Below are positions 17,301-61,536 of a stretch of 64,000 nucleotides of DNA, piece after piece; within the stretch, counting starts at the first letter, position 1, and the number at the start of each line of letters is the position of its first letter. The position numbers were made by a program, and so were the translations under genes. Below the pieces are notes generated by a model, which saw only the letters and a list, made by a program, of their open reading frames with translations, was not told the DNA's origin and did not search any database. This DNA is from Vermamoeba vermiformis (taxonomy: Eukaryota): positions 124,001 through 188,000 of the forward strand of contig JBEWZL010000064.1 in the NCBI GenBank assembly GCA_045837725.1, written 5' to 3'.

Positions 17301-20300
17301 ACGACACGAGTGGCGAGGGCATCATCATCACCTCGCACGACAAACTGACGCACTATCTGCGCCTGATGACGCATCAACTGCCCATTGAGAGTCAGTTCAT
17401 CAAACGACTCGCCGATCACTTGAATGCGGAGATTGTGCTCGGCACGGTCACCAACATACAAGAGGCGGTCACCTGGCTGTCGTACACCTACCTCTTCATT
17501 CGCATGGCCAAGAACCCCTGGTACTACGGCATTGCCTACAATCAGAAGCAGATGGACCCGCGTCTCGTGTCCGTGCGGCGCGACTTCATCATCGTGGCTG
17601 CCAAGCTGTTGGACAAGTGTCAAATGATTCGCTACGATGCAGTCACGGGCAGCTTCTATCCGACTGACCTGGGCCGCGTGGCGAGTCACTACTACATTCA
17701 ATACGAGACCATCAGCATGTTCAACGAGCAGGTCAAGAACACCATCAGCGACGCCGACATCTTCAGTGCCGTGGCGCATGCGAGTGAGTTCGAGAACATC
17801 ACGCAGCGCGACGAGGAGATGGAAGAGCTCGGTCGCTTGGAAGAGGACTCGTGCTTCTTGGAGGTGAAGGGTGGCGTGGAGAATCAGTACGGCAAGGTGA
17901 ACATCTTGCTGCAGTCCTACATCTCGCAGGCACGCGTCGACTCCTTCTCCCTCGTCTCGGACATGTCGTACATTGCGCAGAATGCCTCGCGGTAAGTACT
18001 CGCACCCCCTGCTTGTAGACCTGGCACTGATGGTGTCCCCATGCAGTATATTCCGCGCACTGTTCGAGATTGTGCTCAAAAAGAATTGGATCTCACTGGC
18101 CACGCGACTGCTGAGTATCTGCAAGATGGTGGACAAGCGTCTGTGGAGCTTCTATCACCCACTGCGGCAGTTCCCACACCTCGGTGCGGCACTGCTCACC
18201 AAGCTCGAGGAGCGCAAGGCCTCGCTGGATCAAGTCGAGAACATGACCCTCGATGAGATTGCCAATCTCACGCGCACCAACAAGCTGGTGGCACGCACGG
18301 TCAAACAGGCTGTGGATCAGTTCCCACGCTTAGCCATTGACGTGCAAGTGCAGCCCATCACACGCACGGTGCTCAAGATACAGCTCACGGTGCTGGCAGA
18401 CTTTGAGTGGAATGATCGCGCGCACGGAGCAGTGGAGCCCTGGTGGATCTGGGTGGAGGACGCACAGAACGAGCACATCTATCACTCGGAGTACTTCCTG
18501 CTGCACAAGTACGTCACTCGGAGTGCAGCTGTGCATAATATCATGCGATAGCGCGACTGACACAGCATTGACAGGAAACAAAAGGACGAGGCGCAGAAGC
18601 TGACCTTCATCATCCCCATCTTCGAAGACACCTCGCTGTCGCAGTACTACATTCACGCCATCTCTGATCGCTGGTTGGCAGCTGAGACTGTGGTGCCCAT
18701 GCCCCTCTCCGACATTGTCATGCCCTCCAATTACACGCCCAACACGGAGCTCTTGGACTTGCAGCCCATGCCCGTGAGTGCCCTCGCCAACAAGGGCTTT
18801 GAATCGCTCTATCCCTTCACGCACTTCAACCCCGTGCAGACGCAGGCCTTTCACGCCATGTACCACAGCGAGGTCAATGCGCTGGTCGGTGCCCCCACTG
18901 GCTCGGGCAAGACCATCATTGCCGAGCTCGCCATGCTCAAGTTGTTCCGCGACGCACCCAAGCTCAAAGTGGTCTACATTGGTCCTCTCAAAGCCCTCGT
19001 GCGTGAGCGCATGAAGGACTGGAAGAAGAAGTTTGTGGACAAATTAGGCAAGAGCTTGATTGAATTGACTGGCGACTACACGCCCGATGTGCTGTCGCTG
19101 CAGAAAGCGGACATTGTGACCACCACGCCAGAGAAGTGGGACGGCATCAGTCGTAACTGGAAGAACCGCAAGTACGTCAAAGAGGTGGGTCTGATGATCA
19201 TCGACGAGATCCACTTGCTCGGTGAGGAGCGCGGTCCTATTCTCGAAGTGATCGTGTCGCGCATGCGCTACATCAGCAGTCAGACCGACACTCCGATTCG
19301 CATCATTGGTCTCAGCACTGCACTCGCCAATGCAGAGGACCTTTCTGATTGGCTGGGCACCGATCCTAATATGGTAAGTATCGCACGTGCTGGCACACGA
19401 TCGCAGCACATTGCAAGTCGATTGCTGACACGTGTCACGCACTAGGGCCTCTACAACTTCAGACCGTCAGTGCGGCCAGTACCACTCGAAGCACACATTC
19501 AGGGCTATCAGGGCCGCCACTACTGTCCGCGCATGGTAAGTGTCACACATGTCACAGTCACGTGATGTTGACCTGTCACCCAGGCCACCATGAACAAGCC
19601 CGCCTTTGCAGCGATCAAGACGCACTCGCTCACCAAGCCAGTGCTCATCTTCGTGTCGTCGCGTCGTCAAACTCGTCTGACCGCAATGGATCTGATCAAT
19701 TACTGTGCCTCGGATGAGAACCCGCGTCAGTTCATGAAAATGAGCGAGTCAGAGCTCGAACAAGTGCTCGAACAAGTGCGCGATCCTCACTTGAAGCACA
19801 CCATCACCTTTGGCATTGGCATGCATCACGCAGGTCTCACGGACTCTGATCGCGCACTCTGCGAAGAATTGTTTGCGCGTGAAAAAATTCAAATTCTCAT
19901 CTCCACCGCGACACTGGCGTGGGGTGTCAACTTGCCAGCACACTTAGTCGTGATCAAGGGCACCGAGTTCTTTGACCCCAAGACCAAGCGCTACGTGGAC
20001 TATCCCATCACCGATGTGCTGCAAATGATGGGTCGTGCTGGTCGTCCGCAGTACGACACGAGTGCAGTGGCGGTGATCATGGTGGAAGAGAGCAAGAAGA
20101 GCTTTTACAAGAAGTTCTTGTACGAGCCCTTCCCCGTGGAGAGCAGTCTGAAGGACTACCTGCACGATCACATCAATGCCGAGATCACCTCGGGCACCAT
20201 CACGAGCAAGCAGGACGCCGTGGACTATTTGACGTGGACGTACTTCTTCCGTCGTCTGCTCAAGAACCCCTCGTTCTATCAGCTGGAAGATACGACCGTG

Positions 20301-21620
20301 GAGAGTTTGAATCAGTACCTCTCCGATCTCATTGACCGCACGCTGCGTGATCTCGAGCTCGCGCAGTGCATCAAAGTCGAGGACGATGCCATTGAGACAC
20401 TCACGCTCGGTCGCATTGCCTCGTACTATTATCTGCACTACACCACCGTGCAGCTGTTCCACAACGACATGCACGAGCAGAGTACCATTCAAGAGCTGCT
20501 CACCACGCTGTGCAACACGCGCGAATACGAGGACTTGCCCGTGCGTCACAACGAAGACAAGCTGAATGCTGAGCTCGCGGAGCACGTGCCCTGGGCTGTG
20601 GACACGCGCTTTGTGGAGAGTCCGCACGTGAAGACACATCTGCTGCTGCAGACACACTTTGCGAATGGAGCGATTGAACTGCCGATCAGCGACTACGAGA
20701 CCGATCTCAAGTCCGTGCTCGATCAAGCTGTGCGCATCTTGCAGGCCATGGTCGATGTGACTGCTGACCGCGGCTGGCTGTTCACCACGCTGCGTGTTGT
20801 GCACTTGATGCAGATGATCTTGCAGGTATGTAGCATCGCCTTTATATATATATGACGCATGAGCATTAACACGAGCTCTGACAGGGTCTGTGGTACCCCA
20901 ATCTCAACATGGATCCGCGCTACGGCGACAGCAGCACTTTGTATCAACTGCCGCACATCACGCCCGAGATCGTCGATGTCCTCTACGCAGCAGGCATTGA
21001 GAGCATCGCTGAGCTCGCTGTGTTGAGTGCGCCCAATGTGCGTCACGCTCTGCGCGGTCAATTGAACCGCCGCGAGGTGGAAGAGGTCTGTAGCTGTGCC
21101 TATCACATGCAATACGATGCTTTATTGACAGATACAACTAGGTGATTGAGGTGTTGCATCAGCTGCCAGTGATTCAAGTCAAGACGGTGCTCGGTCAAGT
21201 CACCGCCGGTCAAGAGTGCGAGATCCGACTCACTTTTCAACGACTTACCAAGGCAAGTGGCACTGCTCATTAAACAGCTGATACATGGCTAATCGTTGTT
21301 ATTACTAGGAGCCTAAAGAAGGTATCTACGCACCCAAGTTCCCTAAGCGCAAAGAAGAGAGTTGGTGGCTGATCTTAGGTGATCCGAACACTGGTGAATT
21401 GCTTGCATTGCGGCGCATGAGTCTGGGTGCGCGCATGACCACTAGTCTTACCTTCAATGCCCCGACCCTGGCCGGTGACTACACGTACTATGTGTATCTC
21501 ATGTCTGATTCGTACATGGGTCTCGATCAGCAGTACAAGATCTGCTTCACGCTCGACAAGTCCGTCGCGCACGATGACGAGACCGTGCTCGGCGATGAAG
21601 AGGAGTTTGAGGATGTGTAA
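14391..21620 (+). CDS. ASCC3: ASCC3 / Slh1 tandem Ski2-like helicase with Sec63 domains (multi-exon)
   Basis: N-terminal [11 protein letters not shown]. Two helicase cassettes ([24 protein letters not shown]), [13 protein letters not shown] twice, GRAGRPQYD twice. C-terminal [15 protein letters not shown] and [12 protein letters not shown]. Confidence 0.95.
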
Positions 21621-21902
21621 CTGCGTCCAGTGTAACATAATACTGCGACCGTTGCAAATAAATACTGACGACTCATATCAAGTGTAATGATCGTGCACAA
21701 TAGGACTAGTCCCTATTCATAACGAGCAGTGTGGTGAATCATCGTCGTCAAGTGTCGCATCCGTTACTCGCGTCACATCAGAAGTGGCACTATTGTCAGT
21801 GACTACTGTGCACTGCCCTTAGAAGTATGCCTCGCTCATCACATGTGACATCAACAATAGAGCACAATATAAATATACACACTACAAGTAGCACGCTTTT
21901 AC

Positions 21903-24821
21903 TCACAGCTTCTCAAACACCACTTCGAGTCCACACGCGCACACTTTGAGCCACTTGTCCTCCTCTTGCACGTAGCGGTACTTGTCTTCTGGGAAGTGGT
22001 GCACGTGTTCTTTTTCAGCTGCGTCGTCGTTAGTCACGTGCCACGAGACACGCTACACAGCAGTTACCTTGTTTCTTCGGCGTCTTGTTCTTCAGTCCCT
22101 GCGCAGGCACGCTGTGTGTCTCGCCGTGCTGGTTGTTCAAGCGGTGTTTGATCACCAGGGCACGTGTCAGTTTGGCCCAGCGCTTCAGCACAGCTTCAAC
22201 GCGCTTCTTTTCGCGCGCTTTCTCGCGTCGTTCAGTGTCTTGTGCCCAGGCCTCGCGCAGCACTGCCTCGTGTTCAGCACACACGATGACACCTTCCAGA
22301 ATGGGCTTGGGATGGCCGCTCTTGTCCCATCCTGTTCTTGAACGTCAGTCACGTGCTGCTGACACCTGTCAAACAACGTACCAATCATTGCGGGTGCAAA
22401 GTCTATGCTCAACATCTTGCACACGCGTTTCAAGCCCGGCACTGACAAGTGACAGGTGAGTGCCAGCACTATATTTAGCATCAGTCGTTACGTACAGTTC
22501 AGATGCACCGTGTTGCGTGGCAACATCTCGGGAGTGAATAGATAGACATTGCCATATTTGTTCTTCGGCACCACTCCCTGATGCCAACGAATCAGCAACG
22601 CTTCCAAATAAGGCTATTACGTACATCAACTGCCTCCACGGGCTCGAAGGGTTCAGTTTGCCACAGTCCAAAATAGTCGCTCTCTTCGTCCTTGCCCCAA
22701 TCGCGCCACACTTTCTTTTTCATTTTTTTCACAGGTTGAGAACCAGCCTGTCACGTGTCACATGTCAATCTTTGACCACCCATCGTGTGACACTTACCTT
22801 GACTTGTTTGCCCTCTTCCAGCCACTTCTCAACGGTGTGCACTGGCTGCACTTTGTCGCGCAAGTAATATGGAGTGCTGAATGACACGTGTCAAAACAAG
22901 TGCGGCACGAGACTCGGTGGTGACGTACCCTTTGAAATGTCCAGCAGCTTCAGTGCCAGGTATCAGTGCCTCGTAGCGGCCAATGTGCGAGGCGAGACAG
23001 TAGCGCGGATGATTGCGAAATCCCGCTTGATTGCTCGGTGCTGGCTCGCTTGCCTGGCACTCTGCCAGTGCCTCAACATCCACACGCTCAGCCTCCAGCA
23101 GCTGTGCGGGAGGGGCAGGGGCAGCAGCATTGAGTCGCGCGAGGGTGTTGTTGAACCAAGTCGGATCTGCAGGCCTTAGCTTGAGTGCCACGGACCAGCG
23201 ATGTGCGTAGCGCGGTGTGACATCAGCGACGCGCTTGTGCGTGAAGGCGAGCACATAGGGCGGTGAGTGCTCGTAGTGCATCTTGTCGACGTCACCTTCA
23301 CGTGGATCAACCGCTGTGCATGAGTGAGTCAAGGCAAATAGAGGAATTAATAGGAGTGACTATTAGGGTGCGTAATAGAGCAGGATACGAATCCACTTGC
23401 GAATGACTGACGAGTAGACTTCCACCCAGCTAGTGGAGCCCTCCACGACATCTGATGAGTGTGAGCGAGTGACAGGTGTCAAACAGTGACTTACACTCCA
23501 CCTTCTTTTTCTTCTTGGGCTCAGCACTCTCATCGCTCACACTCGGCTTGTGACTTGCTGGTCTCAACACTTGAATGACACGTGTCAACAGTGACAGACC
23601 GCGACACAGCGCTGCAAACATCTGTAAAGATGAGTGAGTGACACGTGTCAATGATCAGTACGTACAATGGGCGCATTCTGTTCGTCTAACTTGCGCGTGC
23701 GACAGCTGTCAATCAGCGCTTGCAACTTGTCGTCAGTGACCTTCTTCTTGCCGCGCACTGGTTTGACACTCTGTGACACGTGTCAATGAGTCAGTTGTGA
23801 GCTGTGAAGTACAGTGCACTAGTCCTACCTCCGCTGTGAGATCAATCGCAGCCGCTGTTGAGCCCTGGTTGATGGTGAATGTGGACACGAACCAGTCCGC
23901 GAGGTGTGTCAAGCATTGCAAGAATTCTTTTTCGCTGTCGTGCTCCACACTGATGTCAGAGCTCTCAAACAGCGACAGCACCGAGGCCTGCAAGGTCTGA
24001 TCGTCAGCCAGTGTGCTGCAGTGCAGGGCATGGGCCAGCAGTGTCAACAAGTGCGAGCGATGCAGTTCCAAGGCCTGATGCTTCTCCGCACGACTGGCTC
24101 TGCGCACTTCACGCTTCTTCTTGGTGGGTGCTGCGTCCTCCTCGTCACTCGCCGCGCTGTCTTCGTGCTGCAGGGCAATGTCGCTGCAACGAGGTCAGTA
24201 CATAGCGCTGTGTGGCGGCACTACTTACATCTCGCTCTTAATCTCGCGCTTGATCTCGCTCACAGCGGGCATGGCATCGTCCCACTGCACGTCTTCCCAC
24301 TCTTGTTCGTCGTCTGACGCTGCAAAGTGCTGCAGATCGGACATGGGTTGGTCCTCACTAACAATCATTTTCTCTTGCTTGACGCGCGTCTTGTCTTTGC
24401 TCTGTCTCTTATTCACTGGTACCTCTTCGTGCGCAGTGAAGAGCACTTCATCTCCGTCGTCGGTTGCCTCTCGCGTGACTCGTCTGCGCACTTCAAAATC
24501 GTCGTCACTTGCTAGTTGTTCGTCAAATATTACATTAGTGTTGTTAATATTCTTATTCTTCGATTTGCTAACTTTTGGTTTGGCTGCCACGCGAGACTTT
24601 TTGGCCTTGGGGCGGATCTGTTGTTCTTCGTCATCCGAACCCATCACCTCTGCTATACTTCGTTTCTTAGACTTTGGAGATAACTCCATATCACTCGAAC
24701 TGTCGCTGCTATCAGCGCTGTCATTGACGCGAGCTTTTGCTTTGGTTTTGCGCTTGTTGGGCTGCTTCACAGTCAGCTGCTCCTCGGTGATAGGCTTGGT
24801 GCTGGTGCGTGTGCGACCCAT
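21903..24821 (-). CDS. XPC: XPC/Rad4 nucleotide-excision-repair damage sensor
   Basis: HRSHLLTLLAH, WVEVYS, DVTPRYA, FRNHPRYCL, FGLWQTEPF, GVVPKNKYGNVYLF, LSIDFAPAMIG and a C-terminal CACGLEVVFEKL*. Confidence 0.92.
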
Positions 24822-27913: not shown

Positions 27914-30251
27914 TTATTCAAGGGGATTCGCATCTCGTTCTTGATGTGTTCTACGGTGGTGATGGCTCTCGTGCGAGTCACTGTGGCGACGAGATCTACC
28001 ATCATGATGACTGTGTGAACGAGGGTATCTATCTCTGCTGCCGTAGCCTCCACTACGCGAAGAACTGCGCGATCTGAACTCAGTACGACGAGGACCGCGC
28101 GGATCTCTAGAGCGAGAGGAGTGCTCGTGTGCAGGAGATGTAAATTGGTGCAACTGTACGGGCACTGGTTGATCGCTCTCTTTGAGCACGTTAGAGAGAC
28201 TCTTCAACAGTCCTCGATCAGCGTCCAAATCCACAAACGACAGTGCATCGCCAGTACGACCAGCGCGACCAGTGCGACCAACGCGATGAATGTACGCTTC
28301 AATCTCGGTCGGGAGGTCGTAGTTAATCACGTGAGAGACGTCTTTGACATCGAGTCCACGACTAGCCACATCCGTTGCGATCAACACGCGCAAGTGTCCT
28401 GATTTGAAGCGCATAACAGTGCTGTCTCTGATGCGCTGCGAGAGATCTCCGTGCACAGGCGCAGCATCGACACTACAGAGACATTAGAATTGCCACAGAG
28501 CTGTGACACGTGTCACTTACCCGACTTCCATGAGCTTGTCAGCGAGCAGTTCAGTCATGCGCTTGGTGGCCACAAATATCAACACCTTGCCTTGCTTGTA
28601 GTCCTCGGTCTGCAGCACTTGTTGCAGTCTGTCTAGCGTGTGAGTCCCAGTCATGCGGCACATGTATTCAGCACTTACTTGGCACTCTTCTCGCGGCCAG
28701 TCAAGAACTCAAACTGTTGACGCACACGCTTGTTGGCACTCAGCTGCAGCGAGCCAATGTTGATGCGCACTGGGTCTGTCATGTACTCGCGCGCTAGTGC
28801 TCGCACATTCATGGGCCAAGTGGCTGAGAACATCACTGTCTGACGATCCGGTCGCAACTGCTCGATGATCTGCAGCAAGTGTTAGTGATATTGTTAGTGA
28901 TATTGTTAGTGATATTGGCAGTGGTAGTGTTATATTCTGTTGGAAAACGACACGCGTCACAGTCTCAGATCCGGTGTCGCTCGTTACAGAAATGATGCAC
29001 GAGGCTACTTACACTCTTGATTTGAGGTTCAAAGCCCATGTCCAGCATGCGATCAGCCTCATCTGCACCAATGTCAATGCTGGAACACGTACGAGAGAAT
29101 CAGTTGCACTTACCCAGCACCAAGAAGCTGACGTTATTCGTGTTAACGAGGCCAAATTCCAAGAAATCAATCAATCGGCCGGGCGTGGCGACAATCAAGT
29201 GCGGCACTGCGAAACAGTCAGCTATGACATTGCATGACATAATAGTAAATCATACCTCGTGTGAGCTGACTGATTTGACTGGCTCTGTTTGAATCTCCTC
29301 CAAACACACACGCAATCTTAGCTCCGAATTCCTAATTAGGCAAGTGCTGGTCAGTACTGGTCACGTGTCACCTTATTACGACGTACCTTGCAGAATGGAG
29401 CAGCTTCAGCAGCAACTTGCTGTGCGAGTTCACGAGTGGGACAGAGCACGAGAGCGAGGGGACCAGAGTTGTTCTTGAACGAGCTCTGTTGCGAGGCGTG
29501 GGTCAGTGCTGGCAAGATGAAGCCGAGTGTCTTGCCCGAGCCAGTCTCAGCACAGGCCACCATATCGCGTCCCGATAGTGCGAGGGGCCATGCTTGCGAT
29601 TGAATGGTGCTCGGTGTCGCGTACTTGCCCTCCAACAGACGAATCACGCCCGCTGTCAAACTGTCAGTCAGCTGTCCTGCCGGCATTGTACGCTCCTCGT
29701 ACTTACGTGTGAATGGTGCGGCGCTGAAGCTCAAAATCGGCTTGGGACATCGTTCACCAAATATAGTAATGTTGTGCTCTTGACGCCACGCCTCCACTTG
29801 CTGATCTTGCAAGTTCTTGGTGCTGTCGTGCTCTTGATTGAAGTCTTTCTTCAACGTAATCAAGTCCTCGGGCTTCCATACCTTCGGTTCCAATGGTGTT
29901 CTGCCTTCTTTAAGCGATTTCCAGTCATGTCTTGGTTCTTGCTCTCGGTCGGAAAACCTTGATCTCTCGCGTGGACGATCGAAACTGGATCTGCTGCCGC
30001 CGCGACGCTTTGGGCGTCCTTCAAAATAAGATGCACTAGCCGAAAATAACAAGGGTGATTTTGCTATTTTAAATAACTGTGGAAATTAAATGTTAGTGAT
30101 CAGATCGCACGATCGAGGTGAACTTGTTATTGATTTATTATTAAAATCGGGCGTAAAATCATATAGTACATACACTAGTAGATGCAGTGGTTCGCTGCAG
30201 CAGTTTTTGAGAAAAAGAACCGACAGATCGCGAGATGAGCCTTGAAAACAT
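27914..30251 (-). CDS. DDX5/DDX17/Dbp2-like DEAD-box RNA helicase with a probable mitochondrial presequence
   Basis: [42 protein letters not shown] (split by an intron), [30 protein letters not shown]-terminus [20 protein letters not shown]. Confidence 0.9.
28881..28916. repeat. 12-bp tandem repeat x3 (GTTAGTGATATT) in a helicase intron
   Basis: Three exact copies. On the minus strand each carries a CACTAAC branch-point motif. Confidence 0.9.
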
Positions 30252-47066: not shown

Positions 47067-47108
47067 GTTCTGGATCCGAAGAAAGAGTCAGCAAATTTCA
47101 CAACTCAT

Positions 47109-47532
47109 TTAAATACAATAATGCGTGCCTATTATTCTTGTAAATTTTTCTTTGATGCAACTGTTACACGTTTAAAGCGTAGAATTTTTGTAGTTTTGCC
47201 AAAATAATTTAGGTTCGGACCTGGATCTGCCGAGTAATTAGTAACAATAATAATACTAACACCATATTAACATACTCTGATGTTCGAATAGCAACTCAGT
47301 ACCAACACTCTCTTCGTAAGTACCCTTGAAAATGAGATCGTCAATTTTCAACACAGGTGCTTCCGTGTCAAGGCCCTACAATTGCACGCAGTTAATTCGG
47401 TGTTCGATATATGCAAAGTGCGCTCACAATAAGTGAATAGTGTTTGCAAGTAGCGAGCAGATTAGTGTCTTCGTATTCGTCTAGAGCTAGGACGACGTAG
47501 AATTGCTCGTGCGTGTCTAGAGTGGTGCTCAT
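47109..47532 (-). CDS. GTF3C6: TFIIIC subunit 6 (triple-barrel domain; GTF3C6/Tfc7-like)
   Basis: Three exons: EQFYVVLAL...YSLI|GLDTEAPVLKIDDLIFKGTYEESVGTELLFE...|YFGKTTKILRFKRV. Absent from the ORF track. Confidence 0.8.
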
Positions 47533-47695
47533 ATATTGAGACTAGGAGGTCATTAGAAATACCAAGCGTTTTTTTTTGGTTTATTTTCATTGGCGACCGA
47601 TGATATGAACTTTCGAATAGCGAGTCAGAGGGTGTGGTCAGAGGGTCAGATGGGAGTGGTGATGGTAGGGGGGGTGAGTGTACAAAAAAGGAAAT

Positions 47696-49104
47696 TTACT
47701 GTTGAAGGGAGAGCAACACCTTGCGGTCCTTGAACGGCTCTTCAGAGCGCGCGAGTGCGAGGTTGAGCGAGGTGAGGGAGTGACGCTCGACCCAGAGACG
47801 CAACTTCTCCTCGGCCACCAAGCTGATCAAGTGCTCCAGCGACTGGGCGCGCTTGTCGGGGTTCTGCTCGTTCCACGCGGTGAGCCAGAATCCGCGCAGT
47901 TTGATGTCCTTGAACAGCAAGGCACTGGTCGGCACGGTGACTGGACGTCGTGCCATGCCGCCGTAGGTGACAAGAGTGCCGCCAGGTGCGAGCAAGCGCG
48001 ACATCTCGGTGACTGTCTCGCCACCCGTGCAGTTGAGGGCGAGCTTGGGCTGCGGCAAGTCCTTGATCAAGTCGCGGAACTGAGCAGTGCGCAAGTACTT
48101 GTCGCCGCACACAATGTAGCCGCCGTGTTGCTTCATGCGCTCCACGAGTTGTTCGTAGCCAGGTCGTTCTTCGCGGATAATGTTGATCGTCTTCACGCCC
48201 TTCAACTTGGCAAGCTGCAGCACGCACTGACCGACCATGGAGTTGGCACCGTTCTGAGTGAAGGACGTTAGTATTCAGCTGCAGAGGTGCCTGTTGGGCC
48301 ATACCTGAATGACGACATCGCCCTTGTTGAGCTGTTCAAAGTCCTCCAAGAGGCGCAGTGCTGTCAAGGGATTCACGCTCAATGCAGCGAGGTACTCCGG
48401 CTTGACATTGTTCACTGCGGGGTGATGCACTGCTGACACACTCTTGCTCGACACGACTGCGTAATTGCGCCATGTGCCTGTAAAGGAGGGGTGTCAGTGG
48501 TGGTGATTTCGCAGGAGCAGATCCAAAACATAACAAGCGAGTTGTTTTGCGAAAATTTCAATATGTTAATTGCCTATCAATTAATAGCTGATATAGGTGA
48601 GAGCTGCTCGCGGTTGTAAATTAACAAAGTAATAATGACAATAATTACCAAAGCCAGGCTTAGAGGGCAGAACAAAGTCGTTGGGCTTGACATTCTTCAC
48701 ATTGCCACCTACTGCCACAATTTGACCCACACCTTCATTGCCTGCCACTGCTGGAAGAGACGGCAAGACTGGATATGTGCCCTCGATCATATTGATATCA
48801 GAGGGATTAATTGGCGCATACAACATTTTAACCAGAACCTCGTCGTCCTTCAAACTCGAGGGCAGTTTTTCTTTTTCCAAACTAAATTAAAAATTCAATA
48901 AATAAATTATTTTTCGCTTTAGACGTGGATGTGTGCGCCAAATGGCTAGGAATTAATTCCTTACGTCAATACTGATTTAGGACTACCATGTGTTTTAAAT
49001 CGTGCAACGAGTGCTTCTGCTGGAATGGTAGAATACAAACGAGCAGTGCGTGCACTAGATTTGCGCAAGTGCTTGGCGCTGATCGATACAACTTGTCTGA
49101 GCAT
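47696..49104 (-). CDS. MECR: Mitochondrial trans-2-enoyl-ACP/CoA reductase
   Basis: Presequence, [66 protein letters not shown]. Confidence 0.93.
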
Positions 49105-49308
49105 TGAAAGTTATATTGCAAGTGATATTAGCTACTTGTTGTAGTGTTCTTCAGATCAGCGTTATCAACAAGAACCAACAAATATCCTCCGCGGCAACAA
49201 TGCTCCGGGACTGACAGGAATTTTTACCCCCCGACATTTAATTTCGGGTGAATGCACAACTGCAAAGTTAGTATGTGAATTCGTCGTGTTTATTAAATGT
49301 ACAAGCAC

Positions 49309-50729
49309 TCAACGGAACTGCGAGGGTTGCTGAAACATGGCGGATGTGTTGTTCGCGTACTGGCCAGTCACGTGACTCTGCGCGGGGTACTGCGCGGAGC
49401 TCTGCGCGGGGTAATAGATCTGATTGCCGTACATCATGGGCTGATTGGGATTCATCATCATCTGTCCCTGCGCCATCATCACAGGCTGCTGCATCATCAT
49501 GCCCTGCGGTGTCTGACCAGGCACCATCATCATCATCGTGCCAGCGGTGTGTTGTGGCGTCATCATCGTGCCAGGGGTGAGCATCATGGGCTGACCAGCC
49601 ATCATCATCGGCTGTCCATTCATCATGTGTCCAGACTGACCACCAGGGGTGGCACTGAACGAGCCCGTGCCAGTGGCAGTGTGAGTGTTGGGCGTGGTGT
49701 TGTACAGCTGCATCAGAATGCTCTTCGTGTCTTGCATGGTCTGCGCACTGGTGGGCTTGGACTGCGCGGCTGTGTTCGGCACTGCACTCAGCTGCGGTGT
49801 GGCGCTGGGTCGTGCGGGCGTGGCTGTTTGGAACTGCGAGAATTCAATCGTGTCCAAGAAGTCCTTGCCGCGATTGTTGTTGACAGGTGTGTTGGTGACA
49901 GCAGTGGTCGTGACGGGTGTGGTGACAGGTGTGTTGACAGGTGTCGGGGTACCAAAGTCCAACAAGAGCTCGGAGGACTTGGGCACTTGTTGCTGTGGAC
50001 GGTGTTGTGGCTGTTGATGATGTGGCGCGTGATGACCATTGTGGTGCGTGTTGTGGTGAGTATTATGGTGCGTATTGTGATGGGGTGGGTGTAACTGTGC
50101 TTGATGGGGCTGTGAGTTGTGCGGGGCTGCAGGACGGCCAGTGCTGCTGGCACCGAGATTGTAGACCTGATTGTAGGCCTGCTTGTCCGTGAAGCTCTTG
50201 TGCTCGTACTTGTCGCGTATCCACAGCTCCAGTGTCTCCGTGCCCACGTGTCCTGAAGTCGCTGGTCGACGGTACGAGGCTGGGATCGCGTGTTCAAACA
50301 CTTGCTTGGCCAGACCATTGCCAATGCGCTTCAGTGTCTGGGAGAGTGTGAGCACTACAATGCACGTGCTGCTAGACATACCTCGACATGTTCGGGGGTC
50401 CAGTTGTCAAGATCAATGCTTTTTACTTTTGAGATGTGTGTTCCCAAACTACGATGAATACCTGCACAACGAGTGCATATGAATACACCTAAATTTGTCG
50501 ATGTCCAGCGAGGGCCTTATTAATTAGAATATTTGTGTTAGTTAATTTCCGTTTTTTACATTATTTGAAATTTTTCAAACCGATCGGACGTTAGTTGCTG
50601 TATTTATTTACCTTTAACGCCACAATCAGCACACGTTCTGTTATCAGGAATGTTTTTAACTAGATCTTCCAATGTCTGTCGAAATTCAGCTTGCAACTTT
50701 TCATCAGCGAGGATGCTTCTGTTTGACAT
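49309..50729 (-). CDS. SMAP-type ArfGAP with clathrin-box-like LLLDF and Met-rich tail
   Basis: [56 protein letters not shown]. Confidence 0.9.
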
Positions 50730-50919: not shown

Positions 50920-52884
50920 ATGGCTACTGAAGTCAAACTGCGAGAAGTATTCAAATCATCGCTCGAGGATGATCCAGCTGTATTCACAAAATGTAAGCGT
51001 TAATTGCTTTCGCGCGATCTGACTTTTTTATTTCAGGCATTGAATTATGTGGTCAATACAATTTAAAAGAAGAAGAACTGCTTTACAAATGGGAGGCCTA
51101 TGCCTCTAATCACCACTTGAGCGCAGATGAGAAGTTATCGCTGAAGCACTTGGACAAGCTATCGCGCATTGTGCAAGAACAAAAGCAGCCCGTGAAGCGT
51201 AATGTGCGCGCACAAGAGTACAATAAGAACACCGTTCATATGTAAGTCACTCTTCTATTGTTTCGGCGCTCATGCACCCTGCAGGCTTGGTAACGATCTG
51301 CTGAGCTTTTACGGTGTTGAAGCACCCGCATCATCAGCTGCACCTACAGCCGTTGCAGACAGCATGGATGTGGATGATACATTCGAGCCTGTTGCTCAAC
51401 CCCTCACGCGCGATCGCAAATCTGGTCAAGTGGAGAGCTACAACGCCACCCTCTCTGAAGTGCACGCGAGTGGTGTGCCGAGTGACGTGCAGGTGCTGCA
51501 ACACGTCGCGCGCTACGACTACATGTACGATCGCTTGGAAGATCAAGTGCAAGGTACGTGCTGTCTGCCCATCCAGCACTCGACTCACACTGAACGGTTG
51601 TGAATAGCGCGAACACGTGCCGAACAGGTCATTGGTGCTCAACTCGCAGCGCGTCACGGCTTGGCGTGGCAGAACGAGAGCGTGGAGGAGGCAGATGTCG
51701 CGCAAGAGCTCACCGTGCTGGGTCGCGTGGTGCACCGCAACAAGGACGGCGTGACACCGAGTGGCGCGATGAGCACGGACACGGTGGGACTGGTGGTGCG
51801 CAACAAGTGCTATCGCTTGGACGTGCTGTCCGTGCCACACACCGTGCTCGTGCCGGGCATGCACGTGGCTGTCAAAGCTGTCAAGGCCCATGCCACCAGA
51901 CTGCGCGTCACTGACTGCTGGTCCGATGCCGCACTCACGCCCGCACCCCTCACCACGCGCAACACACGGCTGTTGATTGCCGCAGGGCCCTACACTGCGC
52001 GCACAGATCTGCGCTACGACGGACTGGAGCTGCTGTTCGCGCGCATCAGAACCACGCTGCCCGATGTCGTCGTGTTGGTACGTACCAGTGACTTGGCACG
52101 CTAGTCGCACTCACACCCCTCAACAGCTCGGTCCATTCGTCGATGTTGAACACCCGCACGTGCAAGGTGCAGCGGAGATGACGCGCAGTGTGGCGGAAGA
52201 ATTCTCCGCGGTGCTGACACGTGTCGATCAACTCGCCGCAGCACTGCACCACACACAGTTCGTGCTCGTGCCGTCACTGCGCGATGCCCATCAGCCCTTC
52301 GTGTATCCGCAGCCCTGCTACTCGGTAAGTGACACGTGTCATCACGACCTCCGTGCTGACTGAGTGGTTCATGAACAGGCTAAGCCACAGTCCGCGAACA
52401 TCAAGCTGGTCTCGAACCCCGCAGTGCTCAGCGTGAATGGAGTGCGCATCGGCATCTCCACGGCGGATGTGTTGCGGCACATGGCAGCGGTAGAGTTGAC
52501 TGCGCGCACTGCTCAGGACTCGGATCGCATTGCACGACTGCTGCGTCACGTGATCGAACAAGAGAGCTTTTATCCGCTCTATCCCGCGCACACTGAAGTG
52601 CCACTCCACGCGAGTAAATATTTGCAATGTATGTTTCATGAACACGCCCCGCACGTGTTGGTGATGCACTCGCAGCTGCAACACTTTGCCAAGGTAATTA
52701 TTCCGCTCCATTCACTGAACAGCGTACTGACCTCGCGCAGAGTGTGCACGGCGTGTTGTGCGTGAATGCAGGACGCGTGGTGAGTGGCAACTCGAGTGGC
52801 ATGTGCGCTGAACTGCACATCCACGCCTCTGACACGTGTCAATCCGTGGCCGATGTGACGCGTGTGAATCACGTGTATTTGTAG
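50920..52884 (+). CDS. POLA2: DNA polymerase alpha subunit B
   Basis: EELLYKWEAY, YDYMYDRL, IAAGPYT, PDVVVLLGPFVD, VLVPSLRDAH..VYPQP, VSNP, QESFYPLYP. Confidence 0.9.
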
Positions 52885-53746: not shown

Positions 53747-55682
53747 ATGAGTGCACACAAGCGACGTCACGACGATGACTACGATGATGACCGCAGCAGC
53801 AAGCGACATCGCAGTGAGCGCGACAGATCAGATCGAGACAGAGAACGCTCTCGCACGAGTGAGCGGGCCTCAGAGCACTCAGGCTACACAGACAAGAGCA
53901 ATCCGTTCGGTGATGGCAATTTGACGCAGCGATTTGAATGGCGCGCTAAAGAAAAGAAATTGAAAGAGCAAGGCACTGATCCGCGACGAATGAGCAAAGA
54001 ACAGGAACGAGAGCGCGAGGAGGAGATTAAGGTATGTGATATATGCATATTGTTATGGCGGCAAAATTCTGCTGCGCCGTGCAAGTCAGATCTGACACGC
54101 ATAACTAGCGCGACTTGGCCAAATTGAAAGAACGCCGCGAAGAGCGCGAGCGATGGGAGGCAGAGAAAGCACGACTGGAGCGCGAGAAGTGGAATCAAGA
54201 GCAGACTGAAGGCAGTGGTGAGCTGGCGTGGCAGTGGCGTCAAACGCGTCTCAGATGTGAGCAGCGCGTGGCTCAACAGCGCGCTGGACCCGTGGACTGG
54301 ATGTACAAACTGCTCGCCGGGGTGTACATGCACGCGAGCAAGCATCCTGGAGCTACTTCTGAACAAGTCGGACCCTATGTGGAGCGCGACACACGCAATG
54401 CACTGCTCGATCAGGTGGACGAGATGGATCTGATCCAGCCTGCAGTCTTGTTGCGCGAGCTGAGTGCCGAAGAGCTGCGCGCCATGCTCGAAGACATCAG
54501 CAGCGTGGTGGAGTGGGAGCCGAAGAGTCGCATTGACGGCACTGCGTACCACACGCGCGAGTTTTGGCTGAGCGTGGAGCTGCTGGTGCGCGAACAACTG
54601 CAACTGACGCGCGACGAGAGCGGTGCGGTGCATCACAGCATCCAAGAGGACATTGACGCGATATTCGACGGCAAGAACTACGCAGAGCTGTGCGAGCTAG
54701 AGACGCAGATCCAAGGCACGATCGACAGCGGACAAGTGGCCGATGAAGAGTACTGGCACTCGGTGCTCAAGCGACTCGTGGTCTTCAAAGCACACATGCT
54801 GGTGCGTGAAGTGCATCGCGCGATCATCACACGTGATCGACAGGCACGTGTCACAGCCAAGCACGGCGCAGAGCAGTGGCGCACATTGACAGGTGTCATG
54901 CGCGATCAAGAGGAGTATTTGAAGAGTGGAGCACGTGACCAAGAGGCAGTGACACGTGTCAAGAATGTGATTCGCGCGCATCTGAAGCAGTACCGCGAGG
55001 TGCGTGCAGGCAGTGCCGGCGAGGAGGAGTCGAGTGCGAGTGAGGCCGCAGACGACACACCACAGCGCGCAGGGGGCGTGGTGATGAACGAGCAGGAGAT
55101 GTTGGCCATGGAACAGGCGCGCGGTCTCGATGAGAACGAAGAGCTGTTCAATCAGGACTATCCACTCGCACAGCTCAAGCGGAACAACTCAGAGGCACTG
55201 CCCTCCATGGCGAACATTGCCGCCATGATGAGTGGTGCCAGCAGTGCCAGCGCGGACAAATACAAGCCGCGCAAGCCCAAGTACTACAATCGCGTGAAGA
55301 GCGGCTACGAGTGGAACAAGTACAATCAGACGCACTACGATCAGGACAATCCCCCGCCCAAGGTGATTCAGGGCTATCAGTTCAATGTACGTGCCAGTCC
55401 TCGGCGTGTATGTGCAGCGTGTATACTCACCCTTAGTCATTGCAGATATTCTACCCCGATCTGATCGATCCCACCAAGTCCCCGCAGTACTTTATCGAGC
55501 CGACAGAGAGTCACGATCACGTGATTCTGAGATTTCACGGCGGACCTCCCTACGAAGACATTGCATTCAAGATTGTGAACAAGGAGTGGGAGAAGTCGCA
55601 TCGCAAGGGCTTCAAGAGCACGTTCATGAACGGCATCTTGCAGCTGTGGTTCAGCTTCAAGCGCTACAAGTACCGCCGTTGA
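53747..55682 (+). CDS. CACTIN: Cactin spliceosomal factor
   Basis: GYTDKSNPFGDGNL..RFEW, DKYKPRKPKYYNRVKSGYEWNKYNQTHYDQDNPPPKVIQGY.FNIFYPDLID, GPPYEDIAFKIVNKEW, FKRYKYRR*. Confidence 0.96.
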
Positions 55683-55715
55683 AGTCTGTTTAATATTATG
55701 TGCTATATAAATACA

Positions 55716-56614
55716 TCACTGATTGAGTTGCATTTGACCGCGCAGCAGTGCAGTGAAGGTCGTGTTGTTGAGCACGTGATCGACCAGGGCTGGCACGTGC
55801 TCGGGTGTCACGTAGCCGTACCATCGTCCGTCAGGGAAGCACAAGACATTGCCCGCGTATTTGTGACCACCGACGTGCGAGGTCTGGGCACGTGATTAGT
55901 GCGCTATTTTTAGCCGCAGTGGGCACTGAATGCGCGAGTACTCACCTTGGCGACCAACACTTGCTGTGACAGCTGTCGTTTGGCGATCTCTTCGGTGAGC
56001 AGTTGATGCAGTCCTGTCAAAAACAATCACGTGATCAGTCACCGCGCAGACCAGCAAGTGACACGTGTCATACTCGGTCCACAGTACGCGCATCGTTTGT
56101 CGACTTTGACGTGCGCACACACGAAGAGCACGTGACGGTACGAGAGAGCACGTGCCTCGAGTCCGTGCGCGAGTGGAGTGCCGTGCAGCCAATAGCTGAG
56201 CAGGGCGGGCAGTTGTGTCGCGAGGGCCGTGCTGTCCAAGCCAGTCAGCAGCGCGCTGTGTCCGCCCTTGAAGTACAGCGCACTCACGCCACTGCCCCCC
56301 ACTGCTGCACTCGACAGCTCCGTGGCCGAGAGTTTGATCTTGCCCAGGGTGTCGCGGTGTTGTTTGAGCAGACTGCTGAGTGCCACCATCACGGGCGACA
56401 ATTGTTCCACCTTCACGGGCCACTCCTGCTCACTCACGCCCGTGCACACGAACAGATGGCCCTGGTACTCTGCGCGCAATCATTAGCGGGGGTGCTATTA
56501 ATAGGATGTAACATGAATTAGCAGTCCTAATTTACCATCAACGGAGTCAGCCAGCGATTCTGTGCAGGGACGACCAAATCCAACAGTCAAATTCAAGTCT
56601 TCAATGTCAGCCAT
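55716..56614 (-). CDS. Sucrase/ferredoxin-like Aim32/Apd1 family 2Fe-2S protein
   Basis: LFVCAHVKVDKRCAYCGP (C-x8-C) and SHVGGHKYAGNV...WYGYVTPEHV...RG. Confidence 0.9.
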
Positions 56615-56804
56615 TATCTTCGCACGAGTACTATATAAATGTGTGATATAGCCGATAGAGGTCCAAGCAGTGCTGTGTTGCACTCACGAAGCAGTAGAAT
56701 AGTCAAATAAACTTCTGCGCCACTGTCCAGGCTCACACGACGGAAGTTATTTCGCCGAGCAGCACACGAGTCCCTAGTCTAGCACATATATATACACCGC
56801 AGCA

Positions 56805-57154: not shown

Positions 57155-57340
57155 GCTGGATTTGTATTTGTACAAATAAACCTGTAATTTCCTGTACGGT
57201 ACGATTGGTCGTGGCCTTATTGAGCAAGCAAGCATATGGACTATAGTGCATGCGGTGCAATCGATGTGCAGCTATCAGTCCACTGGCAGATATTTTTATC
57301 ATTAATACTCAGATCACAACAACACGACGCGCAAGACCCG

Positions 57341-59851
57341 ATGAATATAGAGCTAGTACACACACTACTCGCAGCACTCGATCACGCACAGAGCGAGCAT
57401 GTTGAGCGCAGTTTGAAGCAGATCAAGAATTTGATTATCGGCAACGTTACAAACAAGAATGTATTTTTGACGCACCATATACTGCGCAAGTAAGTGCGTG
57501 CAAGGACTTTGGTGACTCGGGGGTCAATTTCAATATTATTTTAATTATTAAAATTATGCAATTAATTTCGCATAATTAATCGTCTATTCTCCGCTAGACT
57601 CGAAACACTGCTGTCACGTGATGTGCTGTCACGGGATTGGCGCGTACTCGATGCAGCAGTCGTCGTGCTCGGCAGCATCACTCGTACGCGCACTGATTGG
57701 TCGGCGCACGCTGCTGAGTTATTCCGCTTGTTCGAGCACGTGCAGAGAGTGCTGGCACGTGTTCAGAGTTCAGAACTCGAATTACCAAAAAAGGAAACCC
57801 TTCTACTGTCTTGCTGTCGCACACTGTCGCTGCTGCTCCAATTAGAGCAGTCACGTGATCGAACACCACTGCACAGCCATACCTTGCAGCTGTTGGCGGA
57901 ATTACTGTTGTTCCGCACCACACAGGAGCACGTGACACGCCGTGACAGTCAACTGCTGATCACGGTCACTACACTGCTGTCACGTGTCATGACGGTGCAG
58001 CACGTGACTGACTTGGCACTGGCACCCGAGCACGTGGTGTACTGTCTCGAACAGCTGGCACGTGACTCGATCACTTGGACGGTACGTGCGCGCATCATGC
58101 TGTCACGTGACTGACTATATTTAGACACGCGAGTCGTTGCTGCACTTTTTGGCGCTGAGCAGGCAGTTGAGCGACAGCAATCGCGCGTGGCACGTGGCAT
58201 TCGAGCGCGTGGCAGTTATTCCGATATTGTCCCGCACACTGACCACTGTTGCGGTGCATTCAGTGAACCACGCAGGCCATTACCAAATTAGGCTCGATCT
58301 CTGCCAGTTGACAGCACACATTGCTGGCTTGAATGTGGCTGGTTTATCTAAAAATAGAGATTGGTGCTATTTTTGGACGCAGATCGCGCATCAGGTCCAC
58401 GCACTGTTCACTGAACTGCCTGCTGCTATAAATAGCTCTGAAGACACCGCGAAATACTTGCAACAACTGAGTGACGTCACAGCCACTCTATGCAGCAGAC
58501 TTCCTAATTTGGAAGTGTTGTTGTTGGAGAATTCGCTGCTGATCAAAGTCGCAGAGTGCGTGCAGCACGTGATCAGTGCCAATCACGGTTCACTGAATGG
58601 ATTGATCGAATCTTTGCTGAAATTTATTGATCACATGCTCACCAAGGCCTACACTTCCAAATCAGGCAACGATCCCAAGTGGTCCAATACTTTCATTTCC
58701 AAATTTGTAATTCACCAAGCCGTATACCAGGCAGTGACAGCAGTGCTAAATTTGGCAAGTGACGGCAAGACACAGATAGCGAATGAAATTCCGCTGCACT
58801 GTCTGCTGCAACTTACCCGATTAGGCATCAGACACGTGTTCGCACCGCACAAGACACTGCTAGCCCAACGGACCAATCAGAGCGAAGAGCAGTCACGTGA
58901 TCAATCTCCCGCACAGCTGGTGACGCATCTGATCGATCTGGCTGCCAAAAAGGGAGAGGATCACGAACTAGCGACACGTGCCATCAGCTGCGTGTGCAAT
59001 CTCGTGCTGGAGATACGACCGCTGAGTCACGTGCTGCTGGCACACGAGGCACGGTTGTTGCAGCAGTTGATTCGTGTCGCGCGACTGAGTACTCCACTCA
59101 CTCCGCAACTGCGCCTGGCAGGTACATTGCCATATATAGTAATGTTCAATCAGGACTCAATGTTGCTAATTATAGGACTGTGGACGCTGAAGAATTTGGT
59201 TCATGAATCAGCGCCGAGTGTCAAGCAGCAAGTCATGCAACACGTCACGTGGCCTGTCTTGTGCGCGTAAGTAGTGACTTTTCACTGAACCACCGTTCAC
59301 TGAACTGCCGTGCCAGGCTGCTGAATGACAGCGATGCCCTTGTGCAGCAACACGCGCTGGCATTCACGCGAAATCTCGTGCACAAAGTGAATGCGGAACA
59401 ATTCCAGAACATACTTCCCACCGCCGAGTTCACTGAACAGCTGATGCACTTACTAAAAAAGGCGAAATCTCCCTCCGTGGTCTCTCAAGCCCTGTACGTG
59501 TGTGCCAACATTGCGGAGGCGCATCCACAGCTGCTGTTCGAGCACGAGTTAGTATTGCCTATTATGGACATGATCGATATCAACAGACCCGCTGAAGTAC
59601 TCATGGCCGGTCTGTGGTGCTTGGTGAACCTCACATGGAGTGCTGAAGATGACACTTTGACACGTGTCAAACAGCTCGCTGACACGGCTAGAATTGGATT
59701 CTTCGATCGACTGCGTCAAATTCGCGGCTCTGATTCGCTGGCAGTGGACGTGATTGACAGAGCCAAACAAGGTAAGTGGCACCTGTCGCCTATTATACTA
59801 GACTGACACGTGTCATTGGCAGTTCTCGATCAGATGGTGCTGCGTGACTAA
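57341..59851 (+). CDS. ARMC8: ARMC8/Gid5-like armadillo-repeat protein (CTLH/GID complex), divergent
   Basis: LKQIKNLIIGNVTNK, AVVVLGS, CVCNLVLE, GLWTLKNL, LLNDSD..VQQHALAFTRNL, ALYVCANIA, GLWCLVNLTW. Confidence 0.8.
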
Positions 59852-59957
59852 ATAAAATGCGGAATAAATGCTGTATTGTACAAATTTGGCAATTAGGGTA
59901 TTCTTGGACAGTGTTTATGATTCACTATGTACAAATAAGGCAAGTGACTTGTTGCCA

Positions 59958-61536
59958 CTACAGATTGTGCGACACACTGTCCGCGTACTGCGACCAGAGC
60001 CCTTGCGACACGTGCTTCCACTTGAGATTGAGCTCTTTCAGCTGCTTCACCTCTTCGCGCAGTCGATTGTTCTCTGCCGTCACGTGATCGCTGTTCGCGT
60101 CACTCGGACCACTGGCATGGGCTGGTCTGCGTACCGCACGCACGCGTTCATGAAACACCTCTTCGCTCCACGTGACTGGCTCAGCATCGAGATCGGTCGT
60201 GCCGAGGACCGTGCTGCTGTCTTGGTGCCACAACGTGTCAATCACCTCGTGCTTGGTGTCACTCAGAGCCATGACGCGACGTGTCACTTGCTGACTCGTG
60301 TCATTTGCAGATTCATCATCTTTGCTGATTTTGCCCAGCATCTTCAGACCTGCACGCTTTTTGCTGCGATGTTCCTCTTCGCGCGCATCTAATTTTAGCA
60401 CCACCGCAGCGTGCAGCACAGGGCCCATGTGGCGCGTGAAGGAGTGTGCGATCTGAAAGCTGTTCTCGTACCACACCAGACACGTGTGATCTGCGCTCGT
60501 GGAGATCACGTGACTGCCATCCATGCTCGTGGTCAGTGACGTCACGCGCTGCTTGTGTCCGCGATAGCAGTTGTCGTCACGTGCTGTCTCGATTTGGAAG
60601 TCACGTGCGGGAGGGTCCCAGAGTCCGAGTCTATAAATAACTCCGTCCTCACTTCCCACGTAGGCGCAGTGCCCTGTGGGACTGACAGCGAGTGCGGTGA
60701 GTGGTGTGCTGAATGTGACAGCAAACAGCACGTGACGCGACAGCACATCCCACACACGACACGTGCCATCGGTGCTGATCGACAGCAATTTGCTCTCGCT
60801 CGTCCATGTGACACCTGTCACTGCCAGTCTGTGCGCACTGAGTGTCACGTGACGTGCTGACTCGTTCTGTGAACAGAGAGCACGTGACCAGTCCCACACG
60901 TGCACAGTCGCGTCAGCTCCACCCGTGGCGAGCCATCGCTCTCGCGGACTCATGCGCTAAATACCGCTCGTTAGTTGATTTGCCAGTAGATTGGTTCACT
61001 GAACGTACAATGCACTGAACAGCACGGCGGTGAGCTCCGATCAGTGTCAGGACGAGTGCGCCATCCACCACAGACCAAGCGCGAATAGAGCCGTCGTCAA
61101 ATCCAGCAACAATGTATCTCCCGAGCGGAGATGCGTGCAGTGCTGTCACTTTGAGCGCGTGTTCGGCGCTCATAGTCACCACACTGCGAGTGGCGATCGA
61201 CTCCTGAAGATCAACCATCAGTACCGTTAATAGTATTAAGATCGTGTTATATATGATATTTGGGTATTTTTGGCGATATTTTCACGATTATTTCTCAACT
61301 AATTCGCGGATCCAGATCGCATCGCCTACCGAATCCCAATTCCAAGCGAGTATCTTGTTGTCCACAGCGAGCATGGGATGTGCGTCTAGTCGATCAGTGA
61401 CGGGTTGCATCACACACGCATTGCTGCTGGTCATCACATTCGCACCCAATCCGCGCCAAGTGCGCACGACAGTACCGCCGCGCAGAGTCCAGGCTTGAAT
61501 TGAGCCCTCGGCACCATAGCTCACTATCAACTCCAT
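59958..61536 (-). CDS. WDR18: WDR18/Ipi3 (Rix1 complex) WD40 protein with C-terminal coiled coil
   Basis: WD repeats (IRAWSVVDG.L...AHRRAVQCI, LATGGADATVHVW, AHRLAVT, STDGTCRVW, GHKQRVTSL) and a terminal LREEVKQLKELN coil. Confidence 0.8.

Follow-up and report, generated by a model that had tools for sequence, protein, structure and literature searches.

The 64,000 nucleotides of Vermamoeba vermiformis DNA analysed here (assembly GCA_045837725.1, contig JBEWZL010000064.1, positions 124,001 to 188,000 of the forward strand), referred to below as the window, carry a 12-bp palindrome, TGACACGTGTCA, and its hexameric core CACGTG, densely packed in exons and introns of some genes. A related species has retained them, and eukaryotic genomes do not ordinarily show such a pattern. 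An original prediction, made from the letters alone, had described this word family as hyper-abundant and as a candidate HIP1-like system, written into the genome either by a mutational or repair bias or by selection for a chromatin-organising protein. Our own preference, held tentatively, is that the copies are sites for a putative dimeric DNA-binding protein of the E-box type, selected as arrays over certain gene bodies.

The excess of the palindrome is real. TGACACGTGTCA is present in 14 exact copies, at the very starts that had been listed for "at least 14", vs. zero in every one of 100 dinucleotide shuffles, and its analytic Markov expectation is 0.004, 0.014, 0.013, 0.027, 0.074 and 0.257 for orders 0 to 5, respectively, so that the excess survives even the highest order (14 vs. 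0.26). CACGTG, estimated by eye at about 90 copies, actually reaches 108, compared to 27.8 ± 5.2 (maximum 39) in dinucleotide shuffles. It ranks first among the hexamers of the window, the runner-up having 69 copies, and is the sole G+C-containing hexamer found at its level of 3.85 times the dinucleotide expectation, the remaining top over-represented words being A+T words out of the AT-rich spacers. The related word GTCACGTGAC recurs at the places listed beforehand, with four copies (40034, 49367, 58102 and 60844) vs. 0.06–1.0 by chance. Palindromes as a class are not enriched in the window once the CACGTG family is set aside. The flanks of the 14 TGACACGTGTCA copies, when compared with one another, are unrelated, and a repeat search around them recovered the word alone, without target-site duplications. 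The observation thus holds, and a repeat family does not account for it. Concerning the literature, the listings and the opening parts of abstracts retrieved for the 12-mer, the 10-mer GTCACGTGAC, CACGTG in gene bodies or exons, and eukaryotic iterated palindromes do not describe this pattern; for the 12-mer and the 10-mer, these records hold just primers and plant G-box mentions, and do not give TGACACGTGTCA as a named site.

The copies are far from evenly spread, since 87 of the 108 CACGTG lie in six islands that add up to 12.7 kb, i.e. 20% of the window. The remaining 51.3 kb hold 0.41 CACGTG per kb, about the dinucleotide expectation, a density that is partly circular because the island borders were drawn around the sites. 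The clustering is nevertheless visible independently of these borders, with a variance-to-mean ratio of 4.0 for the 1-kb counts of CACGTG vs. at most 1.68 in 2000 random placements. Hence the word is not uniformly "hyper-abundant" in the manner of HIP1, being clustered in kilobase islands and at chance level in the rest of the window. Five of the islands have about one site per 105–140 bp and the sixth one per 294 bp. As had been noticed, the sites occupy exons and introns, in several reading frames, and seldom promoters: apart from one 3' flank, all are placed in exons and introns, while AT-rich spacers and 5' regions have none. Island borders can even cut genes, the kinase, cactin and Rad4 open reading frames (ORFs) showing 0 sites in their 5' pieces and 2.4–13 per kb in their 3' pieces. 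G+C content per kb is correlated with the CACGTG count (r = 0.42) and island bins are somewhat G+C-richer, but base composition does not explain the islands, since the G+C-rich exons at 15–19 kb (0.55–0.57) have zero CACGTG. When the genes are mapped approximately, tail-to-tail gene junctions border five of the six islands; this association is suggestive only, because another such junction, at 9.05–9.12 kb, has no CACGTG within 2 kb.

Within coding DNA, the word leaves an imprint on codons and on proteins. Thirteen island ORF pieces (2436 codons) were compared with 17 usable non-island pieces (5465 codons), four of the initial 21 non-island pieces having been dropped for want of an open frame. 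The island pieces contain 55 CACGTG, while 500 amino-acid-preserving codon shuffles average 20.0 and never exceed 29; the non-island pieces contain 8 vs. 6.8 after shuffling. All three frames are in use, as the claimed frame independence implied, with 27 copies read as CAC GTG, 23 as xCA CGT Gxx and 5 as xxC ACG TGx. His-Val dipeptides (HV) are three times too common in the island pieces, where 28 are present although composition predicts 9.7, and CACGTG encodes 27 of them; in the non-island pieces, 11 are found vs. 10.1 expected, and 7 of these 11 are written CACGTG. Histidine itself makes up 4.8% of the island residues vs. 2.9% of the others. The shuffle excess and the His-Val and His shifts together indicate that the DNA word overrides synonymous choice and shifts amino-acid content, in islands only. 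The cactin sites fall in a stretch that is variable across eukaryotes but reads the same in close relatives.

These numbers leave little room for the idea that the excess simply follows from codon usage, from the dipeptides encoded or from base composition. CAC, GTG and CGT are indeed common codons and the island bins are slightly richer in G+C, yet the codon shuffles stay far below the observed count, Markov models up to order 5 fail on the 12-mer, further copies stand in introns and in a 3' flank, the G+C-rich exons mentioned above are empty, and the His-Val dipeptide itself is threefold over-represented. Codon usage as a cause is excluded by the Markov and codon-shuffle results, and we regard this whole class of explanations as very improbable. 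A dispersed repeat, a miniature inverted-repeat transposable element (MITE) or an introner family with palindromic ends is even harder to credit. Although all 12 bp agree among the perfect copies, many of which are found at the ends of introns, their flanks are dissimilar, neither target-site duplications nor any shared sequence beyond the core, as would be expected of MITEs or introners, were seen, and the exonic copies are in frame and conserved as coding sequence; the unrelated flanks and the absence of an extended repeat exclude it.

The anatomy of the 12-mer points to two half-sites. Allowing for variable centres, TGACANNTGTCA has 22 matches in the window, of which 14 have a CG centre, 5 CC/GG, 1 GC and 2 GA/TC, so that central variants are indeed present (eight non-CG centres). 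The proportion 14:5:1 fits, by our own arithmetic, p^2:2pq:q^2 = 13.6:5.9:0.6 for independent half-sites TGACAC/TGACAG. All five CC/GG-centred copies, one being the variant TGACACCTGTCA at 22360–22371 and the others starting at 23470, 45555, 54887 and 60809, lie inside islands; the CpG centre is therefore not obligatory, which weakens any model resting on CpG methylation alone. Against the exact 12-mer, 14 sites are perfect, 9 have one mismatch (5 of these 9 with a CAGGTG/CACCTG centre) and 22 have two, while about 5 are expected by chance up to two mismatches. When the CACGTG flanks are oriented by gene strand, upstream and complemented downstream positions have equal composition (G at -2 in 52 vs. 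51 of 101; C avoided at -1, 4 vs. 10), and there is thus no transcript-strand asymmetry. As a separate observation, a tandem array of 12–15 bp units with GTGACAGGTG, the CAGGTG-centred half of the family, stands at 49875–49944 in a gene that is well transcribed and otherwise without the motif.

Nine of the 14 TGACACGTGTCA copies are located in short introns, four are exonic and one follows a stop codon. Eight of the nine intronic copies are within 8 nt of a splice site, e.g. GTAAG|TGACACGTGTCA and TGACACGTGTCA|CAG; the nine intron calls are based on one transcript joint, seven combinations of splice consensus and open frames, and one alignment with the relative. The four exonic copies are all read xTG ACA CGT GTC Axx, i.e. 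T-R-V (the one at 23576 was called exonic by eye); one of the three frames is closed by TGA, and T-R-V is one of the two that avoid this stop. Exon and intron calls are partly manual. ORF-based labels for all 108 CACGTG were discarded as unreliable, since short introns are bridged by open frames and a transcript-proven intron had two of its sites called exon-like.

A metagenome contig from a relative (L001, 3922 bp) aligns to 57330–61170 at 78% nucleotide identity and permits the ortholog comparison called for by the original prediction; a second contig (L002) is from the same species, at 99.3% identity. L001 has 27 CACGTG, or 6.9 per kb, vs. 0–1.8 per kb in 49 unrelated loci. The motif is maintained: 22 of the 31 window CACGTG are identical in L001, and 22 of the 27 L001 CACGTG are identical in the window, compared to 1168 of 3836 (30%) for all hexamers. 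Exonic third codon positions are identical in 49 of 56 cases within the motif vs. 592 of 924 elsewhere (Fisher p = 0.0002). In introns, the picture is one of replacement within the family. The intron at 58082–58124 has GTCACGTGAC in the window and TGACACCTGTCA at another position in L001, and the one at 59267–59316 has two TTCACTGAA in the window and TTCATGAA plus TTCATTGAA in L001. In these alignments, sites turn over while introns retain family members.

A second palindrome, TTCA(N0-1)TGAA, shares the same islands. It has 17 copies in the window, 14 of them inside islands, where all seven copies of TTCATGAA are also found; the two TTCACTGAA just mentioned (59281–59305, +) occupy a single 50-nt intron of the ARM-repeat gene. 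Five of its nine copies in the L001-aligned stretch are conserved.

Taken island by island, the layout is as follows. Island 1 (19384–23790, 15 CACGTG) covers an intron and late exons of an ASCC3-like helicase gene (+) and the 3' half of Rad4/XPC (-), with five perfect 12-mers and two CAGGTG/CACCTG-centred ones. The copy at 19426–19437 is near the 3' end of a putative ASCC3 intron (19374–19445 or 19374–19462, +) that contains a second CACGTG; that at 22882–22893 is 5 nt before the 3' splice site of a putative 52-nt Rad4 intron (22877–22928, -); that at 23576–23587 is probably exonic in Rad4 (-), in the T-R-V frame; that at 23639–23650 is in the middle of a putative 44-nt Rad4 intron (23622–23665, -); and that at 23774–23785 lies directly 5' of the CAG acceptor of a putative 58-nt Rad4 intron (23771–23828, -). 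Island 2 (39827–40581, 6 CACGTG) is the 3' part of a protein-kinase gene (-), whose ORF is without CACGTG over its first 660 nt or so; its 12-mer (40437–40448) is exonic on the minus strand, in the T-R-V frame and within an unbroken transcript contig (40332–40775). Island 3 (44920–46612, 14 CACGTG) spans a whole diphthamide-synthase/L-PSP (Dph6-like) gene (-), with a 12-mer at 45927–45938 that is 7 nt past the donor GT (GTGAGTT|TGACACGTGTCA) of a putative 52-nt intron (45894–45945, -).

Island 4 (51614–52880, 9 CACGTG) comprises the DNA-polymerase subunit-B gene (+) and its 3' flank; one 12-mer (52330–52341) comes right after GTAAG in a putative 54-nt intron (52325–52378, +), which also holds TTCATGAA, and another (52830–52841) is about 65 nt past the stop codon, in 3' untranslated region or spacer. 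Island 5 (54830–56159, 12 CACGTG) contains the 3' parts of the cactin gene (+) and of a Suc_Fer-like gene (-), tail to tail. Its exonic 12-mer (54950–54961, cactin, +) is in the T-R-V frame within a lineage-specific variable stretch, where the cactin relatives (83–87% amino-acid identity) likewise read V-T-R-V-K; its intronic one (56059–56070) is 3 nt past the donor GT of a 60-nt intron proven by a transcript contig (56014–56073, -), which has a second CACGTG. Island 6 (57615–60907, 31 CACGTG, or 1 per 106 bp) covers the ARM-repeat gene (+) and a WD40 gene (-), again tail to tail. The 12-mer at 59658–59669, in an ARM-gene exon (+) and in the T-R-V frame, is base for base the same in L001, whereas that at 59804–59815, 6 nt before the AG of the last ARM-gene intron (59772–59821, +), is missing at the aligned place in L001, which keeps the donor-adjacent CACCTG box. 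The last copy (28504–28515) falls outside the six islands, within a DEAD-box helicase gene, where it comes right after the GTAAG of a putative 48-nt intron (28473–28520, -). Also outside the islands, a 19-bp tandem repeat of 2.4 copies (35439–35483, unit CACGTGATTGTATCTCCAG) gives three CACGTG. Long stop-free antisense frames run over island genes, e.g. at 59868–60392 (+), 55970–56521 (+) and 51334–52110 (-), and are probably a by-product of palindromic composition.

We lean towards arrays of binding sites because the excess is specific to one word family, the flanks are strand-symmetric, the centres fit independent half-sites, synonymous positions are maintained, turnover retains the family, a second palindrome is co-resident, coding sequence bears the imprint described above, and most 12-mers are intronic while the exonic ones are T-R-V. 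What is observed in this scheme is how the sites are built, their statistics, the half-site proportions, and their conservation and turnover; from there, we infer that a dimeric, sequence-specific protein of the E-box (CANNTG) type would recognise the sites in double-stranded DNA, through a half-site TGACA[C>G], and that selection would keep dense arrays of them over the transcribed bodies of some genes. In less constrained DNA, namely short introns and a 3' flank, the full 12-bp optimum could be accommodated, squeezed against splice signals; in coding DNA the core alone would be kept, in whatever frame the protein tolerates (His-Val, x-Arg-x or Thr-Cys), so that codon choice and even amino-acid composition would be pulled towards the motif. 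TTCA(N0-1)TGAA in the same islands is what would be expected of composite binding-site arrays. Binding might further set the chromatin or transcription state over gene bodies, mostly at tail-to-tail junctions, for example by restraining read-through or antisense transcription, or by co-regulating genes.

Several observations speak against arrays of binding sites. The sites avoid promoters and AT-rich spacers, the usual territory of E-box factors, and neither a preferred spacing nor a helical phasing of the CACGTG sites was found. The "digital" profile of the 12-mer, with more perfect than one-mismatch copies, and the writing of nearly every island His-Val as CACGTG look more like an unbounded drive or an enzyme recognition. 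The positions at +/-1 are complementary in 48 cases vs. 31.2 predicted by independent halves (p = 4e-4), an excess symmetry that could stem from site subclasses (A..T, T..A, G..C) or from a mixture of intronic and exonic sites. Neither of the intronic CACGTG at 58104 and 59807 is kept in place in L001. Finally, the evidence base consists of one 64-kb window and 3.9 kb from a single relative.

Both causes named by the original prediction, a mutational or repair bias and a chromatin protein, are possible, and the properties on which it relied (frame independence, non-promoter location, overriding of codons and amino acids, maintenance) stand. The former cause would be a HIP1-like drive, in which motif-directed repair or a gene-conversion bias turns near-cognates into the palindrome, which is protected thereafter; this could be done, for instance, by a site-specific methyltransferase coupled to a mismatch nuclease of the very-short-patch type acting on heteroduplex DNA. 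The islands would then be where the process acts, e.g. recombination-prone regions, and the motif would need no function. Such a drive would fit the saturation of convertible positions inside the islands compared to outside, the amino-acid shift, the digital profile and the independence of frame and strand, and it would conserve the motif in a relative as well; HIP1 is itself tied to orphan methyltransferases, according to the abstract of Elhai 2015 (PMC4390886). Several facts sit poorly with it. The CpG centre is dispensable, two drives would be needed since an unrelated second palindrome occupies the same islands, and the sharp contrast between the halves of one gene (kinase, cactin, Rad4) requires an extra assumption. 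The one-step neighbours lack a clean signature: relative to expectations that the motif itself inflates, CATGTG/CACATG stands at 0.44, but CATG generally is at 0.54, and TACGTG is at 1.0. We know of no eukaryotic precedent, and on balance we hold such a drive to be doubtful, though a serious candidate.

An element acting at the RNA level, whose self-complementary words either pair, so that short introns are looped out, or are bound by a factor for splicing or RNA processing, appears improbable. It would agree with the preference of the 12-mers for introns and splice-site proximity, with the presence of every site in transcribed DNA, and with the predicted folds, in which the two copies of one intron pair with each other (19374–19462, 56014–56073 and 59772–59821), intron 59772–59821 folding with z = -2.63. 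Yet among ten motif introns folded, z fell below -2 in that one only (range -2.63 to +1.37, mean near -0.5), so that folds more stable than shuffled ones were not found across motif introns; six motif-free control introns ranged from -0.97 to +0.82. Moreover, flank composition does not depend on the transcript strand, long exons hold most of the sites (12 in one 996-nt exon of the WD40 gene), the CACCTG-centred copies are not self-complementary at their centre, and 11 of the 14 transcript-proven introns are spliced all the same without CACGTG.

As for its gene content, the window is gene-dense eukaryotic DNA with spliceosomal introns. Pfam matches comprise Piezo, an ASCC3/Brr2-type helicase, Rad4/XPC, DEAD-box helicase pieces, a RanBP1-domain protein, a kinase, diphthamide-synthase/L-PSP, a zinc-type dehydrogenase, DNA-polymerase subunit B, cactin, and Suc_Fer-like, ARM-repeat, WD40 and CAF17-like proteins, while an Sm-like protein was read from an ORF translation; an Rfam search matched no family. 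Fifteen of 35 transcript joints were examined, one being a replaced segment and not an intron, and at least 14 spliced introns of 44–171 nt were obtained from transcript contigs, 13 GT-AG and one GC-AG (47070–47128, -). The seven introns called from splice consensus also had to have, on either side, an open frame of 35 codons or more; a brute-force enumeration gave 1715 candidates and was useful only once filtered, and a codon-usage gene finder was too noisy, missing the ARM gene. Transcript-contig depth is a poor measure of expression, and an impression of weak expression of island genes was not used as evidence. Raw RNA reads under the same species label aligned in numbers of 174–238, nearly all at 95–99% identity and over a few conserved genes (47338–50672), with 23 other letters in place of 48262–48335; they therefore come from a diverged strain or species, and gave neither gene models nor usable expression levels. 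The cactin relatives are followed by nothing above 38% identity and the WD40 protein has only two close relatives; on these protein comparisons, the host lineage appears isolated.

Some further features of the window were recorded. The segment 42700–44650 is A+T-richer, with internal direct and inverted repeats (e.g. 43358–43510 vs. 44170–44322 at 88%, and 42760–42985), and transcript-contig depth is zero at 42669–44669; it may be a degenerate mobile element or repeat block. Two cassettes of the ASCC3-like helicase (17135–17328 vs. 19887–20080) share 81–82% nucleotide identity over 92 and 68 nt, a high value if the internal duplication is ancient; strong constraint or inter-cassette conversion may be the reason. 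CCGG is scarce (43 vs. 110 expected from dinucleotides) while CpG overall is not depleted (odds 0.98), and AAGCTT (2 vs. 19.9), CCTAGG (0 vs. 4.8), CGGCCG (1 vs. 8.1) and CATG (228 vs. 421) are also scarce. Outside the window, a scan of genome and viral contigs for two 12-mers 105–135 bp apart returned only unrelated matches: two from bacteria, a 21-bp tandem repeat and a repeated element, and an iteron-like array from a virus. In an A+T-rich viral contig, TGACACGTGTCA forms iteron-like copies (TGACACGTGTCAC), and in a bacterial metagenome-assembled genome it is part of the 21-bp repeat (L054:2914–3128; L052:3510–3710).

Whatever writes or keeps the motif, selection at synonymous sites can be cleanly tested on this locus, as can the extent to which a signal at the DNA level bends a proteome, and the exact 12-mer is a ready bait for pull-down. 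If the copies are protein-binding sites, then gene bodies, and not promoters, of a compact eukaryotic genome carry dense, conserved arrays of one word, at a cost visible in protein sequence. If they result from a drive, they would represent, as far as we know, the first described eukaryotic case of a mutational process that writes a motif.

Among known systems, HIP1 (GCGATCGC, cyanobacteria) resembles the window motif in being a short perfect palindrome far above Markov expectation, high orders included, and present in coding and non-coding DNA, in several frames and with unrelated flanks, its perfect copies outnumbering near-misses. It is bacterial, genome-wide and tied to orphan methyltransferases, as stated in the abstract of PMC4390886, whereas the motif described here has a eukaryotic host with spliceosomal introns, is gathered in kilobase islands and not spread over the window at large, and tolerates CC/GG in place of its central CpG. 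The E-box or G-box (CANNTG, CACGTG) of bHLH and bZIP dimers shares the CACGTG core, the symmetric flanks and the half-site proportions, and its homotypic clusters likewise exchange individual sites between relatives while the family persists. Promoters and enhancers, outside coding sequence, are where E-box clusters are known; the window sites, in contrast, are exonic or intronic at about 1 per 100 bp, avoid promoters and measurably change proteins. Exonic transcription-factor sites, or duons, and intragenic regulatory sequences also overlap codons with a DNA-level signal that constrains synonymous positions. Duons are reported to occur singly and scattered, and to affect codon choice little, unlike the one word found here at nearly every available His-Val, a dipeptide that is itself in excess. 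Bacterial uptake sequences (uptake signal sequences, USS, and DNA uptake sequences, DUS) are also hyper-abundant, exact, intragenic words that bias peptide content; they are non-palindromic and serve natural transformation. It is conceivable, although we would sooner doubt it, that the window holds a eukaryotic counterpart of HIP1 and uptake-sequence systems, in which a conversion or repair process, or a chromatin protein coating gene bodies, writes the 12-bp palindrome and its core into exons and introns of defined islands; the pressure would then suffice for almost every His-Val to be re-coded and for this dipeptide to become three times as frequent.

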